Of a DNA stretch of 64,000 bases, positions 9,623 through 64,000 are shown in pieces. The notes below the pieces were generated by a model, which saw only the letters and a program-made list of their open reading frames with translations, made no database searches and had not been told where the DNA came from. The stretch comes from Candidatus Parcubacteria bacterium (GTDB lineage Bacteria; Patescibacteriota; Patescibacteriia; Patescibacteriales; UBA12075), in assembly GCA_023132155.1 (NCBI GenBank), contig JAGLYP010000002.1, forward strand, positions 6,598 to 70,597, given 5' to 3'. The position numbers were made by a program, and so were the translations under genes. Every line of letters begins with the position of its first letter. Position 1 is the stretch's first letter.

Positions 9623-10461
9623 AAAAATTATCAGTTATAATAATTAATTACGGCACGGCAGAGATGACGGAAAAGGTTATCAAGAATTTTATTGTTAAAG
9701 AAAAGTCTTTAAGTTATGAAATAATTTTGATTGATAATAAGTCTGTTGAAAAAATTAATGAAAAGAAATTTTTGGATTTGGGCGCGGAATTAATTAAGAA
9801 TCAAGAGAACCTAGGCTTTGCCAAAGCTGTTAATCAAGGAATAAAACGCGCCCAAGGAGAGTATATTTTATTATTGAACTCCGATGTATTTATTAAGGAA
9901 AACGCTATTTCTAAAATGATTGAATATTTAGAAAGCGATTTGGACGCGGCAATAGCCGCCCCGAAAATATTTTTCCCGAATGGAAGAGTACAAATTAGCG
10001 CCGGAAGATTTCCAAATTTAACAAGGGAATTTTTGCGTTTGTTTAAGCTGTATAATCTAATTCCAAAATCCACTTTAATGAGTAAAAATGAAATGGAAAG
10101 CCATCGCGAGCGCGAAATTGATTGGGTAAGCGGCGCGTGCATGCTTTTTAAACGGGAGTTGACGGACAAAATCGGTTTTTTTGATGAAAAATATTTTTTA
10201 GGGGTTGAAGATATTGATTTTTGCTATCGCGCGCGAAAAAAAGGCTTTAAAAATATTTATTATCCAATGTCAACAGTAATCCATTATCACGGATTTTCGT
10301 CCGGCGGAACTGCGGCAATCAAACGCATTAAATATGATCGAGATGGCATGATATATTTTATGCGAAAGCATTTCCCGAAAAAAGTTTTTAGTTGGATATT
10401 AATCAAACTAATGCATGATTTGAAAATTTTTTTTCTTTTCTGTCATTCCTGTAAAAGTTAA
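9619..10461 (+). CDS. family 2 glycosyltransferase
   Basis: N-terminal SVIIINYG, then IDN.S and LLLNSD (DxD region), then EDIDFCYRA. The last codons run into a GTCATTCCTG word resembling the repeat-element terminus. Confidence 0.8.
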   Translation: MKKLSVIIINYGTAEMTEKVIKNFIVKEKSLSYEIILIDNKSVEKINEKKFLDLGAELIKNQENLGFAKAVNQGIKRAQGEYILLLNSDVFIKENAISKMIEYLESDLDAAIAAPKIFFPNGRVQISAGRFPNLTREFLRLFKLYNLIPKSTLMSKNEMESHREREIDWVSGACMLFKRELTDKIGFFDEKYFLGVEDIDFCYRARKKGFKNIYYPMSTVIHYHGFSSGGTAAIKRIKYDRDGMIYFMRKHFPKKVFSWILIKLMHDLKIFFLFCHSCKS

Positions 10462-10490
10462 TTCATTGACAAAAAAACTCTCTTTTATTT

Positions 10491-10699
10491 GTCATCCTGG
10501 AATTTTTATCGTAGCGACAGCGGAGATAAAAATATCCGGGATCCAGGAGCGCGAGAATTAACTGATAATTAAAATTAACTAATGCCACGTATTAATTTAT
10601 TTATGTAATTGGTCATAATATAATAATTATACATATTACCCCTGGATCCCGGATATTTTTTCTTGTCGCTATCGCTCCAAGAAAAAATTCCAGGATGAC
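10491..10699. mobile_element. miniature (ORF-less) copy of the hairpin-armed GIY-YIG-associated element (copy A)
   Basis: Left arm GTCATCCTGGAATTTTTATC...GATAAAAATATCCGGGATCCAGG (10491-10547). Right arm CCTGGATCCCGGATATTTTTTCTTG...CAAGAAAAAATTCCAGGATGAC (10641-10699). The arms are inverted copies of each other and each folds on itself. AT-rich core of about 90 bp with no ORF. Confidence 0.7.
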
Positions 10700-10782
10700 A
10701 AAATATAGAGGTTTATTAATTTTTGTCAACGGATTTGGTTGACAATATTCAAGACATTAAAAAATTAAAAGCTAGTATAACA

Positions 10783-11781
10783 ATGAAATTAAAAATAACA
10801 CAAAAAAAATATACCCCCAAAGACGCGACAATCGCGGTTACTTATTTTTGCAATTCGCGCTGTAGAATGTGCAATATTTGGCAGGATAAAAATCCGCGGA
10901 GTTTGAAAAAGGAAGATTTTTATAACTTAAGTCCTGATTTAAGATATATTAATTTATCAGGCGGAGAGCCTTTTCTGCATCCTGAATTGCCGGAAATTGT
11001 CCGTATTATAAATAAAGTCAGTCCAAAAGCGAAAATTATCATATCCAGCAATGGATTGGCAACCGGCTTGATTATAAAAACGATGAAAGAGATTAAAAAA
11101 ATTGATTCGCGTGTTGGTATTAGAATTTCAATTGACGGATTGCGAAAAACCCATGATCGTATGCGTGGGATTGATGGAATATATGAGGCTGCTATGAAGA
11201 CGCTTGCCGGTCTTAAGATAATCGGCATTAAAAATTTAGGATTAAGTTTTACGATTATGAATGAAAATGCTGATGAATTGAAAGATATATATAATTTGTC
11301 AAAAGATTTGCAAATTGAATTGGCTTTGGCCTTGGTGCAGAATTCTGAAATATATTTTACAAAAAATGACAACCAGTTAACTTATATTGATAAAGTTAAG
11401 AGCGGCCTGAATTATATTATTAAGCAAGAATTAAAAAGCGCGAACCCAAAGCGCTGGGGGCGAGCTTTTTATGATTACGGTTTGCTAAAATACGCGGAAA
11501 GCAAAGAACGCCTGCTAAAAAGCGGCGCCGCTTACGATTCTTTGTTTATTGATTCCTTGGGAAATGTTTATCCCAGTAATTTGATAAATTTGAAATTAGG
11601 CAGCATCAAAAAAGACAAGCTGGACAATATCTGGCGGTCTGGCAAAGCGCAAGCGGTTCGCGATAAAATAGAAGCGGAAAATATCACGGAAAGCTGGATA
11701 ATTTGTACAATCCGCGGCGAGATGAAAAAAAATATATTTAAGGTTTTGTTTTGGGTGTTAAAGAATAAGTTATGTGTGTAA
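10783..11781 (+). CDS. radical SAM protein in glycan locus
   Basis: CNSRCRMCNIW (CxxxCxxC) near the N-terminus, then GGEPFL. The track starts at TTG 10723; I prefer ATG 10783 because 10723 lies just after the repeat element. The start is uncertain. Confidence 0.7.
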   Translation: MKLKITQKKYTPKDATIAVTYFCNSRCRMCNIWQDKNPRSLKKEDFYNLSPDLRYINLSGGEPFLHPELPEIVRIINKVSPKAKIIISSNGLATGLIIKTMKEIKKIDSRVGIRISIDGLRKTHDRMRGIDGIYEAAMKTLAGLKIIGIKNLGLSFTIMNENADELKDIYNLSKDLQIELALALVQNSEIYFTKNDNQLTYIDKVKSGLNYIIKQELKSANPKRWGRAFYDYGLLKYAESKERLLKSGAAYDSLFIDSLGNVYPSNLINLKLGSIKKDKLDNIWRSGKAQAVRDKIEAENITESWIICTIRGEMKKNIFKVLFWVLKNKLCV

Positions 11782-53386: not shown

Positions 53387-54493
53387 ATGATTAATAAAAA
53401 GGTCAAAATAATATTAAGTGGGGGCGGTACCGGCGGGTCGGTTACGCCGCTTTTGGCAATGGTTGATTTGTTGAAGCGCGGAAAGTTTGAAAGGCATACT
53501 GAAATTGAATTTCTTTGGATTGGGACTAAAGACGGGCAGGAAAGGCAGTTGGTTAACTCGTCTGGAATTCGGTTTATGTCTATACCGGCGGGTAAATTAA
53601 GGCGTTATTTGTCATTGCAAAATTTTTTGGATTTTTTTCAAATTTATCTTGGTTTTTGGCAGTCTTGTTATATTATTTTAAAAGAAAAACCAAATTTAAT
53701 TATTAGCGCGGGTTCATTTGTGAGCGTGCCGCTTGCGTGGGCGGCATGGTTTTTACGCGTTCCGGTTTTGATCCATCAGCTTGACGCGCGTCCGGGGCTG
53801 GCTAATAAATTAATGGCTCCGTTCGCAAAAACAATTTCAGTAATTTTTAAAAAGTCTTTGGCGGATTTTGGGAAAAAGGCGGTTTTAACAGGCAATTTGA
53901 TTCGCAAGGAATTTATTGAAAATAAAATCAGTAAGCGCGAGGCAGCGCAAAAAATCGGCATGCGGACAGATAAACCGATTTTGCTCGTTATCGGCGGTGG
54001 AACAGGAGCGGGAGCGATTAATGATTTTATTTTGGAAAATATAAGCAGTTTGACAAAATTTTGCCAGATTTTGCATATAACAGGCAAAGGCAAGTCAAAC
54101 AAAAAAATGGAAGAAATAATGGAAAAAAATTCCGGTTATAAATTTTTTGAATTTTTAGATGCTTTCGGTTTAATCAAGGCGTTTGCCGCAGCGGATATTA
54201 TTATTTCACGCGCCGGAATGGGCACCTTAACCGAATTATCCTACATTGCCAAACCGGCAATTATAATTCCCATGCCGAATTCGCATCAGGAAGAAAACGC
54301 TGAAATTTTTTCCAAGGAAGAGGCGGCCGTAGTTTTAAATCAAAAAGAATTGGATGGCGAGGTATTGCTAAATAATATAAAAAAGATTTTAAAAGATGAG
54401 GAGTTAAGAAATAAATTAAAAAATAATATTAAAAAAATTATTAATACGGAGTGTGGGGATGAGATTTTTAATATTGTTAAAGGATTGATTTGA
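53387..54493 (+). CDS. murG: UDP-N-acetylglucosamine--N-acetylmuramyl-(pentapeptide) pyrophosphoryl-undecaprenol GlcNAc transferase
   Basis: GGGTGGSVTP at the N-terminus, VIGGGTGA, and SRAGMGTLTEL. Confidence 0.9.
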   Translation: MINKKVKIILSGGGTGGSVTPLLAMVDLLKRGKFERHTEIEFLWIGTKDGQERQLVNSSGIRFMSIPAGKLRRYLSLQNFLDFFQIYLGFWQSCYIILKEKPNLIISAGSFVSVPLAWAAWFLRVPVLIHQLDARPGLANKLMAPFAKTISVIFKKSLADFGKKAVLTGNLIRKEFIENKISKREAAQKIGMRTDKPILLVIGGGTGAGAINDFILENISSLTKFCQILHITGKGKSNKKMEEIMEKNSGYKFFEFLDAFGLIKAFAAADIIISRAGMGTLTELSYIAKPAIIIPMPNSHQEENAEIFSKEEAAVVLNQKELDGEVLLNNIKKILKDEELRNKLKNNIKKIINTECGDEIFNIVKGLI

Positions 54494-54519
54494 GAAATTG
54501 CAGTTTGATTTTCTCTCTT

Positions 54520-55000
54520 GTCATCCTGGGGCTTGACTGGAGCAACAGCGCGCCCAACGGAAGTGCCCTTGGGGTAGAAGTCAAGAACCCGGGATCCAGG
54601 AGAAAAAGCTCAAACTATAAATTAATTTTCAAAGACGAAAAAAGAATACATTTATTACACATACATTTTAGCAAGCAAAAGAAACGGGACATTATATATA
54701 GGAGTAACAAACAGTTTATATTCAAGAATATTACAACATAAGCTAAAACAAAATAAAAACAGTTTTACGGCAAAATATAATACAGATAAACTTGTTTATT
54801 ATGAAGAATATCAAAATATTCAAGACGCGATAGCCCGTGAAAAAAAATTAAAAAGATATAAAAGACAGTGGAAAATAGAATTGATTGAAAAGGATAATCC
54901 CGTTTGGAGAGATTTTTTTAAAGACATGGAATGAGCTTTTACCCCTGGATCCCGGATATTTTTATTTCCGCTGCCGCTCCAATAAAAATTCCAGGATGAC
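54520..55000. mobile_element. hairpin-armed element carrying a GIY-YIG nuclease ORF (copy B, putative autonomous copy)
   Basis: Left arm 54520-54600 (GTCATCCTGGGGCTTGACT...AGTCAAGAACCCGGGATCCAGG). Right arm 54944-55000 (CCTGGATCCCGGATATTTTTATT...AATAAAAATTCCAGGATGAC). The termini are inverted repeats, shared with copies at 10491-10699 and 62851-63000. Confidence 0.75.
54626..54934 (+). CDS. GIY-YIG nuclease (UPF0213/YhbQ-like), open frame without a canonical start codon
   Basis: Translation is ..KKEYIYYTYILASKRNGTLYIGVTNSLYSRILQHK...KYNTDKLVYYEEYQNIQDAIAREKKLKRYKRQWKIELIE... (GIY...YIG, catalytic R, E). No ATG/GTG/TTG between the upstream in-frame TAA (54623-54625) and the domain, so it is missing from the ORF track. 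Confidence 0.7.
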   Translation, partial: FSKTKKEYIYYTYILASKRNGTLYIGVTNSLYSRILQHKLKQNKNSFTAKYNTDKLVYYEEYQNIQDAIAREKKLKRYKRQWKIELIEKDNPVWRDFFKDME

Positions 55001-55037
55001 AAAAAACGGGAACATTCGTTAAAATGACAAAAAATTT

Positions 55038-56339
55038 ATGAAAAATTGCAGCTTAATTATAAAAGGAAAATATGTTTTAACAATGGATGACAAAATGTCT
55101 GTTTTTAATGATGGGGTTGTGGCGGTTGATGATGATGAAATAATAGCAATTGGCGAAAAGGAAATTTTAGAAAAGTACAAGAGTGAAAAAATTATTGATG
55201 CGGGAAACAGTATTATTATGCCGGGGCTGATTAATACGCATACGCACGCGGCCATGGCGTATTTTCGCGGGTTAGCTGATGATTTGCCTTTGCCGGTATG
55301 GTTGGAAAAGCATATTTGGCCGGCTGAGGCTAAATATGTTAATAAGAATTTTGTTAAAAAGGCTTCAGCGCTTGCTTGTTTGGAAATGATAAAATCGGGA
55401 GTTACTTGTTTTAATGATATGTATTTTTTTGAACAAGAAACCGCTTCGGTTGCAAGCCGGATCGGAATGCGCGCTTTAATCGGCGAAGTAATATTGGATT
55501 TTCATACGCCAAGCTGTAAAACTCCAAAAGAAGCGCTGAAAAAAACAGAAGAAATGATATTAAAATATAAAGACAGCGAATTAATTTCAGTGGCAGTCGC
55601 GCCTCATTCTATCTATACTTGTTCAGAGGAAAATTTAAGCAAATCGAAAGAATTAGCAGACAAATATTCAATTAATTTGCATATACATATAAGCGAAACT
55701 GAAAAAGAAAATAAAGATTGTTTGAGAGATAATGAAAAAAGTCCGGTTAAATATTTGGATGAGCTGGGAATTTTGAATAATAAAACAATTGCCGCGCACA
55801 GTATTTGGCTTGATGATGAAGATATTGAGATATATAAAAATAGGCAGGTAAAAATAAGCCATTGCCCGATTAGCAATATGAAATTAGCCTCCGGTATTAT
55901 GAATTTTAAAAAAATGCGTGAATCGGGTTTGGTAATCAGTTTGGGAACGGACGGCGCGGCAAGCAATAATACTTTGGATTTATTTTCTGAAATGCGCGCT
56001 TGCGCTTTATTGCATAAAGTAAACAATTTGAATCCGGAAATAGCCTCTGCAACTGAAATCGTAAAAGCCGCGACAATTAACGGCGCCAAGATCTTGGGAA
56101 TGGATGATAAAATCGGTTCGCTTGAAATTGGCAAAAAAGCTGATATAATAACTGTTAATTTGAATAAGCCTCATTTGACCCCGATTTATAATCCATGTTC
56201 GCATTTGGTTTACGCGGTTAATTTAGCGGATGTGGAGAATGTGATTGTTAACGGCAAGCTGATTATGCAAAACAGGGAAGTTTTGGGTTTGGATGAGGAT
56301 AGAATATTAGAAGAGGCATGTAAGTTCAAAAGGAACTAA
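55038..56339 (+). CDS. mtaD: amidohydrolase, 5-methylthioadenosine/S-adenosylhomocysteine deaminase-like
   Basis: MPGLINTHTHAAMAYFRGLADDLPLPVWLEKHIWPAE, HISET, and GTDGAASNN. The last two codons and the stop lie in palindrome P1b. Confidence 0.75.
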   Translation: MKNCSLIIKGKYVLTMDDKMSVFNDGVVAVDDDEIIAIGEKEILEKYKSEKIIDAGNSIIMPGLINTHTHAAMAYFRGLADDLPLPVWLEKHIWPAEAKYVNKNFVKKASALACLEMIKSGVTCFNDMYFFEQETASVASRIGMRALIGEVILDFHTPSCKTPKEALKKTEEMILKYKDSELISVAVAPHSIYTCSEENLSKSKELADKYSINLHIHISETEKENKDCLRDNEKSPVKYLDELGILNNKTIAAHSIWLDDEDIEIYKNRQVKISHCPISNMKLASGIMNFKKMRESGLVISLGTDGAASNNTLDLFSEMRACALLHKVNNLNPEIASATEIVKAATINGAKILGMDDKIGSLEIGKKADIITVNLNKPHLTPIYNPCSHLVYAVNLADVENVIVNGKLIMQNREVLGLDEDRILEEACKFKRN

Positions 56340-62740: not shown

Positions 62741-62781
62741 GGGGTATTTCGCTTGTATTTTAAGCGAAATACCCTTTTTTA
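62741..62781 (+). terminator. rho-independent terminator
   Basis: GGGTATTTCGCTT gtatttt AAGCGAAATACCC followed by TTTTTT. Confidence 0.8.
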
Positions 62782-62850
62782 TTTTTCCTGATTTCAATAA
62801 AATATTTAATTTTGCTATAATAAATCGTAAGAGCCTTTTCATTTCTTCAT

Positions 62851-63000
62851 GTCATTCCATGGGCGCGGAGCGCAACCTGGAATCCAGGAGGGCGAGAAAT
62901 AAATAAACAATAACAAATAAGTATAGTACGTGCATCTTACCCCTGGATCCCGGATATTTTTTCTTGTCGCTTAAGTTCCAAGAAAAAATTCCAGGATGAC
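62851..63000. mobile_element. miniature (ORF-less) copy of the hairpin-armed element (copy C)
   Basis: Left arm GTCATTCCATGGGCGCGGAGCGCAACCTGGAATCCAGG (62851-62888). The right arm (62942-63000) is 53/59 identical to copy A's right arm, and all differences fall in the hairpin loop. Confidence 0.7.
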
Positions 63001-63047
63001 AAAAGAGAGGGATGGCGTTGTGCGAATTGTAGTCTAATTATTTTTTT

Positions 63048-64000
63048 ATGAATTTTCATAAATTAAAATCAACCTTAAGAGATTTGCAAGAGCCGAATTT
63101 TCGGTATAAGCAAATCGTAAGCGCCTTTTGCAAGAAAGGAGTTTTGGACTATTCGCAAATCAGCAATATTTCCAAAAAATTGGTAAAAGATTTAAAAGAA
63201 AGAATAAAGCCGCTTAGCTTTAGTGCTGAAAAAATTTATTCCGCAAACAACAATCTTTCCTTTAAAGCGCGATTAAAATTAAATGACGGTGAATTGATTG
63301 AAACGGTTTTTTTATCGCCCTTGCCGGGCGCTTGGTCTGCTTGCGTATCCAGCCAAGCCGGATGCAAGCTTGCTTGCAAATTTTGCGCCACGGGACAAAG
63401 CGGCTTTAAAAGAAATTTAAGCTCTGAAGAAATAACCGATCAGGTAGTTTTTTGGAAGCATTTTTCGCGCGAAAAAAAATTAAACGGCAATTTTTCAAAT
63501 ATAATTTTTATGGGCATGGGTGAACCGTTTATGAATTGGGATGAAGTTAAAAGCGCTATCAAACAATTAGTTGATCCTGAATTTTTCGGTTTTGGCTCCC
63601 GGCATATCTCGGTTTCTACGAGCGGAGTTGTTGACGGCATAAAAAAACTTGCCAATGATTTTCCGCAAGTAAACTTGGCAATTTCATTAATATTTCCCGA
63701 AGATAGTTTGCGCAGTGAGTATATGCCGATAAACCGCAAATTTAATCTTAAAAAATTGCAGTTAGCAATATCTTCTTATTTAAACAAAACTAATCGCAAA
63801 GTTTTTTTGGAGTATGTTATGTTAAAAGGTATTAATGATGATTTAAAACAGGCGGATAATTTGATTGATTTTATAAATACGATTGAAAACGGCAGGAAGC
63901 TGTTGCATGTGAATTTAATTCGTTATAATACAACTATGGTTGAATTTATTCCGTCTGATCTGGGCACGGTAAACAAATTTAAAAATCATTTACTAAGAAA
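63048..64000 (+). CDS. rlmN: 23S rRNA/tRNA (adenine-C2)-methyltransferase RlmN (radical SAM), C-terminus cut by window edge
   Basis: Manual translation gives MNFHKLKSTLRDLQEPNFRYKQIVSAF..., SSQAGCKLACKFCATGQ, MGMGEPFMNW and ISVSTSG. Absent from the ORF track because it runs off the window. Confidence 0.85.
   Translation, partial: MNFHKLKSTLRDLQEPNFRYKQIVSAFCKKGVLDYSQISNISKKLVKDLKERIKPLSFSAEKIYSANNNLSFKARLKLNDGELIETVFLSPLPGAWSACVSSQAGCKLACKFCATGQSGFKRNLSSEEITDQVVFWKHFSREKKLNGNFSNIIFMGMGEPFMNWDEVKSAIKQLVDPEFFGFGSRHISVSTSGVVDGIKKLANDFPQVNLAISLIFPEDSLRSEYMPINRKFNLKKLQLAISSYLNKTNRKVFLEYVMLKGINDDLKQADNLIDFINTIENGRKLLHVNLIRYNTTMVEFIPSDLGTVNKFKNHLLR

Follow-up and report, generated by a model that had tools for sequence, protein, structure and literature searches.

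A probable target duplication around an Ssn/SRM hairpin element at the murG-mtaD junction of a Candidatus Parcubacteria genome

Introduction

The 64,000-nucleotide stretch of DNA analysed here (the window) comes from a Candidatus Parcubacteria bacterium (assembly GCA_023132155.1, contig JAGLYP010000002.1, positions 6,598 to 70,597 of the forward strand) and carries, between murG and an mtaD-like amidohydrolase gene, a short element composed of ssn, a gene for a small GIY-YIG nuclease, and two hairpin arms in inverted orientation. A 21-nt sequence which includes the start of mtaD is found on both sides of this element. An original prediction, made from the sequence alone, had related both copies to the insertion of the element, which would either carry a replacement 5' gene segment or generate a long duplication. 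The repeat is probably a duplication of the target produced by insertion, and the element appears, from its sequence, to belong to the Ssn/SRM family as a new long-stem variant in a new host lineage.

The Ssn family has been described as comprising widespread single-domain GIY-YIG nucleases (CDD cd10448) that are specific for single-stranded DNA, together with characteristic hairpins, the Ssn-related motifs (SRM), represented in Neisseria by the NTS, CGTCATTCCCGCGMAVGCGGGAATCYRG (Chenal et al., Nat Commun 2025, PMC11893778). The NTS-ssnA-NTS unit was likened to insertion sequences (IS), but the mobility of the gene-plus-hairpin unit and the spread of hundreds of hairpin copies were left as a hypothesis, with no evidence of transposition, empty and filled sites or target duplications (PMC11893778). 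Within a limited access to the literature, no other work on Ssn mobility or target duplications was found, and a search by the long-stem arm sequence returned nothing relevant. What is new here are the empty and filled sites and the long, variable target duplications, the element family having been known since 2025.

The murG-mtaD junction

The left copy of the repeat contains the TGA stop of murG (54491-54493) and agrees with the right copy at 17 of 21 positions; the coordinates, the sequences, the overlap with the stop and the degree of matching (Table 1) are all as had been claimed. The right copy is regarded as the true mtaD start because the N-terminus MKNCSLIIKGKYVL is kept among homologs, which carry the source-given names MTA/SAH deaminase. 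It is also the only copy in which an ATG continues into the gene, and the claim that an intact 5' end of mtaD exists solely to the right of the element was correct. The element itself stands after codon 7 of mtaD, that is, past its base 21.

The differences between both copies had been described as mostly synonymous; the pattern is true, but only four differences are involved, which carry no statistical weight. Similarly, the 83-codon open reading frame (ORF) said to open at the left TTG (54490-54741) does exist, but it is only mechanical, with no Pfam match, and in a relative with a filled site (L004, see below) the frame stops after 29 codons.

Table 1. Features of the murG-mtaD element and of the other family members in the window
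Feature	Positions	Strand	Basis or remarks
murG (GT28 glycosyltransferase)	53387..54493	+	ORF list; Pfam PF03033 and PF04101 (GT28 N- and C-terminal domains)
Left copy of the probable target duplication, TTGAGAAATTGCAGTTTGATT	54490..54510	+	Probable former mtaD start plus 6 codons, ATG now TTG
Left terminal spacer, TTCTCTCTT	54511..54519	+	Pyrimidine-rich, 9 nt between duplication and GTCAT
Left arm, long-stem SRM-like hairpin GTCATCCTGG...CCCGGGATCCAGG (54520-54600) plus inner inverted repeat GAGAAAAAGCTCA	54520..54612	+	Inverted repeats I1, I5, I10
ssn, 99-codon, apparently single-domain GIY-YIG nuclease	54635..54934	+	Pfam PF01541, E = 4.8e-15, residues 10-83, sole Pfam match
Right arm, long-stem SRM-like hairpin (CCCCTGGATCCCGG...CCAGGATGACAA on the + strand)	54932..55002 (arm from 54944)	-	Inverted repeats, fold
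Stretch of 35 nt from right arm to right copy	55003..55037	+	Second ATGACAAAAAA at 55024-55034 (direct repeat D4)
Right copy of the probable target duplication, ATGAAAAATTGCAGCTTAATT	55038..55058	+	Functional mtaD start plus 6 codons
mtaD-like amidohydrolase	55038..56339	+	Pfam PF01979 (Amidohydro_1), E = 4e-76
Second family member, two inverted arms, no ORF, upstream of a gene	10478..10712	.	Arms 10491-10547 and 10641-10699; AT-rich centre of about 90 nt
Third family member, ORF-less, between rlmN promoter region and rlmN start	62845..63012	.	Empty sites in L204, L205, L206
Left copy of the rlmN-element duplication, AAATCGTAAGAGCCTTTTCA	62821..62840	+	Repeats rlmN codons 22-28
Functional right copy, within rlmN, AAATCGTAAGCGCCTTTTGCA	63111..63131	+	Flank alignment

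Empty and filled sites in related genomes

In two relatives whose mtaD is 84% identical to that of the window (L002 and L003) there is no element, and murG and mtaD overlap as ATGA (...TTAATATGAAAAATTGCAGTCTAATT...): the junction reads ...AAAGATTTAATATGAAAAATTGCAGTCTAATTATTAAAGG..., with a single ATGAAAAATTGCAGTCTAATT overlapping the murG stop. This is the overlap that had been predicted as the original state. More distant or rearranged genomes (L120-L123) show other upstream neighbours or, in L123 (70% identity), a murG-mtaD spacer of 36 nt with a hairpin and no ATGA overlap. The left copy of the window agrees with the single-copy junction of L002 and L003, AGT included, and the comparison of these empty sites with the filled one places the entry of the element after codon 7, in keeping with the predicted entry a few codons into mtaD. 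Furthermore, in a third relative (L004, mtaD 82% identical) the same site is occupied by a two-hairpin element of about 175 nt which contains no ORF. To its left stands TTGAAAAATTGCAGTC and to its right ATGAAAAATTGCAGCC, the same duplication as in the window.

Polarised against the empty site, the right copy has undergone two changes, both synonymous, and the left copy four, namely the loss of the start, a Lys to Arg change and two synonymous changes in Leu codons. The changes in both copies are about as frequent as the general divergence among these genomes.

Since the genome was assembled from a metagenome and the arms are repeats present in many copies, contigs mis-joined at a repeated hairpin might simulate a duplication. 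The chance of such an assembly artefact is nevertheless close to negligible: the copies differ at four positions, each in frame with its own gene, the same arrangement is found on all four contigs read that carry P0001, an equivalent structure exists in an unrelated sample (L004), and similar structures occur in many independent assemblies.

The left copies of the window and L004 share TTG and AGT and their right copies ATG and AGC, the empty site having ATG and AGT, a distribution which, as far as these sequences go, favours one ancestral insertion at murG-mtaD followed by one change per copy. Against a single insertion, the right arms of both elements are of different types and their right spacers are unrelated; in reverse complement, the right half of the L004 element is similar to the left half of the element found upstream of rlmN in the window, and by mtaD identity L004 goes with the empty L002. 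Recombinational remodelling of a multi-copy mosaic element would reconcile these observations. The divergence profiles near the junction favour neither course, and two independent insertions at the same site still have to be reckoned with.

Another relative, L122 (GCA_030632665.1, 1316-1502), has an mtaD homolog called as 371 amino acids from MPGLISTHTHA, the N-terminal 60 codons lying upstream in another frame, as a 72-amino-acid ORF, with a frameshift near an A-run; this is either a pseudogene or a sequencing error.

Significance of the repeat

A blind local alignment of the 200-nt flanks gives a score of 25 (z = 0.2 against shuffles), so the earlier worry about AT-richness was justified, and the 21-nt repeat would not stand out unaided in a genome of 35% GC. 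Because the blind 200 x 200 nt alignment fails to single out the 21-mer, an anchored test and a null of mismatched flanks were adopted. In the former, the register is fixed by aligning the murG stop codon TGA with the TGA contained in ATGA, and 14 of the 17 following bases are then identical. Only 3 of the 127,966 positions of the window (both strands) match the mtaD 17-mer equally well, these being the 17-mer itself, the left copy and 63478-63498(-), the chance expectation being about one match per window (binomial 7.8e-6 per position). The third match, TTGAAAAATTGCCGTTTAATT, lies inside rlmN on the opposite strand, agrees at 19/21 with the degenerate pattern and was rejected as equal to that expectation. 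Against mismatched flank pairs from 65 related elements, the murG-mtaD repeat has p of about 0.01. The significance of the match, questioned at the outset, varies with the test: it is lacking in the blind alignment, and the anchored match is rare.

The simplest alternative, chance similarity in an AT-rich spacer, with the element placed in a pre-existing intergenic region and nothing duplicated, can draw on the blind alignment and on the third match. It is extremely unlikely, considering the rarity of the anchored match (about 8e-6 per position), the match of the left copy to the L002/L003 junction, AGT included, by which the empty-site comparison contradicts it, the repetition of the pattern in L004 and the family-wide enrichment of flank repeats described below.

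Flank duplications across the element family

Homology among the window element and two sister copies of the same subfamily (L083 and L046) does not extend beyond GTCAT at the left end and ATGAC at the right end, the flanks being unrelated, and no mtaD-like segment was found beside the arms of these sisters. Where a repeat is present, each insertion has its own, locus-specific one, of 13-74 nt. At a Chloroflexi-like hypC-hypD locus (L177), an element with intact ssn is flanked by a perfect 21-nt repeat consisting of the hypD ATG plus six codons, and in a relative (L208) the hypD-start sequence is present once. Further flank repeats measure 34 nt (L170), 41 nt (L188), 74 nt (L203), 15 nt (L181), 14 nt (L145) and 13 nt (L064). 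Family-wide, 9 of 65 elements lie above the 99th percentile obtained with mismatched flanks, as against an expectation of 0.6. Of the duplications at the seven other loci, six overlap the start or the stop of a gene, that of L064 being situated about 10 nt upstream of the downstream start codon, and any duplication abutting an ORF covers the end of that gene. The spacer from GTCAT or ATGAC to the repeat is mostly 5-10 nt.

In the window itself, the flank alignment of the ORF-less element upstream of rlmN reaches z of about 9, with none of 300 shuffles as good, and its left copy is missing upstream of rlmN in L204-L206, where the promoter-rlmN junctions are uninterrupted. In its simplest history, a duplication of about 110 nt would have been formed, and a later deletion between aattttGCTATAA and aattttCGGTATAA would have removed the first ~88 nt of the left copy. 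The stretch 62770-62810 had been read as a remnant of the rlmN start, with CTG for ATG, beside a duplicated terminator; this reading was withdrawn, as L204-L206 show the native promoter region there, the duplication being confined to 62821-62840.

Presence/absence polymorphism at orthologous sites is therefore observed at three loci, namely murG-mtaD, upstream of rlmN (empty in L204-L206) and the hypD start (L208 versus L177), and such a coexistence of empty and filled orthologous sites, combined with target duplications specific to each locus, is what classically proves transposition at the genomic level. The proposed search for other copies flanked by duplicated gene ends has in this way been answered positively, at rlmN, at L177, at other loci and by the family-wide excess, and the same locus-specific repeats and enrichment support the proposal that insertion generates a long duplication.

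The other proposal, a replacement 5' segment or att-like core borne by the element and integrated site-specifically, the right copy then being element DNA, fares differently. The intact copy does lie on the far side of the element, and the dRS3, Neisseria relatives of these hairpins, are phage recombinase targets (PMC11893778). However, the element neither contains nor adjoins an integrase gene, a different sequence is duplicated at each locus (mtaD start, rlmN codons 22-28, hypD start, various gene 3' ends), and the sister copies of the same subfamily, L083 and L046, are without any mtaD-like segment, all of which makes this explanation very unlikely. The duplicated segment, judged by its sequence, appears to be derived from the target and not borne by the element.

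The motif [ACT]TGAAA(A)T is found within, or at the beginning of, several duplications (window 54490-54510, L145, L170, L177 and L188: ATGAAAAATTG, ATGAAATACG, CTGAAAATTGATT, CTGAAAATTTAAT, TTGAAATGGG). This recurrence may reflect a target preference or mere gene-boundary composition; the sample is too small and no common motif is claimed. The hypC-hypD spacers also hold older, ORF-less SRM-like hairpins, in L177 at 242-330 (GTCATTGCGAGCG...CGCAATGACA) and in L208 at 1410-1495 (GTCATCCTGAGTG... and GTCATTCTCATGG...CAGAATGACA), and this same intergenic site appears to have been hit repeatedly. Upstream of a hypD homolog in L209 (1-100), there are four tandem units of about 15 nt ending in AATGAC (gggctgtatgctgggaatgac), which may be degenerate arm ends.

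Anatomy of the element

The left spacer probably represents the outermost bases of the element; CTCTCTT-type left spacers with AAGAGAG-type complements on the right are also found in the other copies of the window and in L004. The left-arm hairpin has a folding energy of -18.9 kcal/mol (DNA fold), and the termini of this arm agree with the NTS/SRM consensus ends GTCAT...ATCCAG. The arms flank ssn in inverted orientation, the left at 54520-54600 (+) and the right at 54944-55000 (-), with the ends GTCATCCTGG ... GGGATCCAGG. Copies of the right arm, 85-92% identical, lie at 10485-10547, 10636-10703 and 62937-63004 and belong to the two ORF-less elements of the window; two-hairpin derivatives of this kind are dispersed over the same genome.

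The ssn gene begins with ACG (54635-54637) and has no ATG, GTG or TTG start, which is why it is absent from the mechanical ORF list; the remainder of the 99-codon frame is intact. In the sister copies L083 and L046, whose products are 91% and 87% identical in amino acid sequence, an ATG stands at the same position. The copy in the window has probably been inactivated recently, to judge from this comparison; either it is a very recent pseudogene, or the non-canonical start codon is used. No further ssn copy exists in the 64-kb window, and NCBIfam and PDB sequence searches with the GIY-YIG protein gave no match.

Neither a recombinase nor an integrase was found in or beside the element (ORF list, Pfam). 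At the gathering threshold of Rfam the window has no match save one tRNA, and the region 54400-55100 yields only noise at E <= 10; a group I or II intron, or a catalogued structured RNA with a homing endonuclease, was rejected for want of any Rfam family match.

The 35-nt stretch that follows the right arm could be a degenerate second arm end, or else a decayed copy of the 3' end of murG, in which case the duplication would measure about 50 nt. An alignment extended to 56 columns against 54456-54510 has z = 5.5, the upstream part alone z = 0.3. A sigma-70-like promoter match, ATGACA-18 nt-TAAAAT, is situated at 54996-55025, leaving 12 nt before the ATG of mtaD. As a hybrid promoter directed outward, it could compensate for the loss of translational coupling with murG; promoter-like matches in the region are not above chance, four having been found and 3.6 expected.

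Family identity

A metagenome scan for relatives of the window protein returned 80 loci (47-73% identity), most of them bracketed by inverted TGTCAT-stem-loop-stem-ATCCAG hairpins in which the stems co-vary and the ends are constant. A near-canonical NTS (TGTCATTCCCGCGAAAGCGGGAATCCAG) flanks homologs in this range of identity, and hairpins beside such homologs agree with the NTS consensus of the literature in 27/28 positions (e.g. L159). The published SRM search sequence, HGTCWYN(0-2)YYVSBRHN(0-5)WNVSBRGN(0-2)RNCYNB, has no match in the window (shuffles average 0.1) because the stems there exceed the published length 2-3 times; at least one match is present at 46 of the 68 metagenomic homolog loci considered, and matches on both sides at 20. 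The arms of the window have been filed as a long-stem variant because they share the conserved ends and do not conform to the compact pattern.

The exact arm 16-mer CCTGGATCCCGGATAT recurs at the foot of hairpins (...ATTCCGGGATGAC) in Alpha-, Beta- and Gammaproteobacteria, Bacteroidota, Dehalococcoidia, Saccharibacteria and others (L013, L018, L020, L021, L024, L028, L044, L050, L058, L062, L070, L077, L088, L110, L113 and further loci). The stems of these hairpins differ and co-vary, the ends being conserved across phyla far more than the stems.

Proposed course of insertion

The murG-mtaD repeat is likely to be a target duplication generated by the insertion of an Ssn/SRM element. Before insertion, murG and mtaD would have overlapped as ATGA. 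The element would have entered after base 21 of mtaD, with at least 21 bp of target being duplicated (murG stop, mtaD start and six codons), so that the left copy still supplies murG with its stop and the right one provides mtaD with its start. Later on, the ATG of the left copy would have become TTG and the start of ssn would have changed from ATG to ACG, the right copy accepting synonymous changes only. Such a duplication explains how an insertion within the ATGA overlap of a minimal genome could take place without harm to either gene.

The specific enzymology is put forward with much lower confidence. The Ssn of Neisseria binds its hairpin only as single-stranded DNA and cuts a few nucleotides 5' of it (PMC11893778). 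With inverted arms, a cut of this kind would lie at the outer edge of either arm but on a different strand for each, and Ssn may define the ends of the element by such cuts 5' of both hairpins. A cut a few nucleotides upstream of the hairpin seems compatible, by analogy, with the boundary of the duplication, which lies mostly 5-13 nt outside GTCAT, and with the length of the spacer (9 nt on the left here, mostly 5-10 nt elsewhere). The breaks in the two target strands would be separated by tens of nucleotides and would vary in position independently of each other, the gaps being filled once the element has been joined; the unusual length and variability of the duplications imply that the breaks on both target strands must be uncoupled. 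Long duplications would be seen at gene ends for two reasons: insertions there survive only if the duplication restores the end, and a copy under selection stays recognisable. In turn, long duplications may let the elements persist at the gene ends of a tightly packed genome. The arm-plus-flank sequences provide concrete substrates for the predicted cut sites.

Several observations weigh against insertion with target duplication. At murG-mtaD, 35 nt between the right arm and the right copy are unexplained; the spacers of L188 and L203 measure 18 and 43 nt; and at rlmN the left copy, presumed to have measured ~110 nt, is reduced to its last ~20 nt, which calls for a secondary deletion. In about 85% of the elements no flank duplication is detectable, 10478-10712 and the intact L083 and L046 being among them; either AT-rich spacers lose such duplications quickly, or insertion does not necessarily produce them. 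The mtaD of L002, with an empty site, and that of L004, with a filled one, are 87% identical (window-L002, 84%; window-L004, 82%), and with this pairing one insertion requires a differing locus tree or a clean loss. Finally, the Ssn member characterised in vitro is a hydrolytic single-stranded DNA nuclease with no strand transfer shown, and its demonstrated role in Neisseria is the restriction of transforming DNA and not transposition (PMC11893778).

The same target-element-target structure might have arisen by copy-choice or one-sided recombination in place of a staggered cut. In a first version, template switching during replication would produce a tandem duplication and, at its junction, take up a copy templated by the hairpin element; in a second, incoming single-stranded DNA cut by Ssn beside one arm would enter by homology-facilitated illegitimate recombination, so that the right copy came from a donor strain and the copies differ partly through donor-recipient divergence. 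The highly variable length of the duplications (13-74 nt, perhaps ~110) is typical of template switching or illegitimate joins, the left junction at rlmN lies between the similar sequences aattttGCTATAA and aattttCGGTATAA, the Neisseria Ssn does cut transforming single-stranded DNA beside hairpins (PMC11893778), and hairpins would be plausible sites of fork stalling. On the other hand, the ends of the elements are fairly constant (GTCAT/ATGAC, spacers mostly of 5-10 nt), which points to ends defined by a nuclease and not to random microhomology joins. Moreover, the donor version explains the spread of an existing insertion but not the first insertion at a new site, and the divergence step along mtaD beside the element that donor-derived flanks would entail was not seen. 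Recombination of either kind is considered unlikely, although it carries some weight.

A broader proposal can be made tentatively, although somewhat more speaks for caution than for confidence. Ssn/SRM units may form a distinct, phylum-spanning class of prokaryotic transposable elements, moved via single-stranded DNA by a minimal GIY-YIG nuclease that defines their ends at hairpins. They would make variable duplications of 13 to more than 70 bp which regenerate gene starts and stops, whereby the elements and their ORF-less derivatives might colonise gene boundaries, even overlaps, in streamlined genomes without killing host genes.

Comparison with known systems

The described Ssn/SRM units (PMC11893778) have in common with the window element, as far as its sole Pfam match goes, a single-domain GIY-YIG protein of about 100 amino acids, together with inverted hairpins GTCAT...ATCCAG and many ORF-less copies near genes; the arms of the window differ in their long AT-rich stems (55-80 nt) and in their host, which belongs to the Patescibacteria/Parcubacteria.

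Regarding the REP/BIME and REPIN sequences with RAYT, an IS200/IS605-like Y1 HUH protein, the similarities are short hairpins, often as inverted doublets, around a single nuclease gene and dispersed intergenically, the recognition of hairpins in single-stranded DNA, and non-autonomous doublets outnumbering the gene. The fold of Ssn, however, is GIY-YIG and not HUH/Y1, and no covalent intermediate is to be expected for that reason. REPINs and IS200/IS605 are not known to make a target duplication, in contrast with the 13-74 nt at Ssn/SRM elements.

Classical IS and MITEs share inverted ends, a target duplication, and both autonomous and miniature non-autonomous copies. Their duplication is fixed at 2-14 bp and they depend on a DDE transposase, whereas the Ssn elements show long, variable duplications, no DDE enzyme and a hairpin at each end. 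Variable-length duplications arising from uncoupled first- and second-strand breaks are likewise produced by the target-primed insertion of LINE, SINE and Penelope-like elements, the last of which also use a GIY-YIG nuclease. The analogy is one of outcome only, as the Ssn elements reside in bacteria and have no reverse transcriptase, poly(A) or signature of an RNA intermediate. Lastly, integrative elements at gene ends (tRNA/tmRNA islands, some prophages) also leave a gene-end direct repeat around the insert and the gene functional, but the Ssn element has no integrase, measures only ~0.2-0.5 kb, and its locus-specific repeat is absent from sister copies.

Other family members in the window

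The gene downstream of the element at 10478-10712 starts at 10784. No significant flank duplication was found at this element, the only candidate being the weak pair TTAATTcaTTGaCAA / TTAATTtTTGtCAA. A solo arm end, ttctGTCATTCCTG, lies at 10442-10455, directly past the stop of the upstream gene.

The ORF-less elements (window 62845-63012 and L004 394-540) are mosaics of interchangeable hairpin modules, an organisation similar to that of BIME/NIME. The centre and right arm of the L004 element are the reverse complement of the left arm and centre of the rlmN element of the window, and its left arm matches the left arm of the ssn-bearing element.

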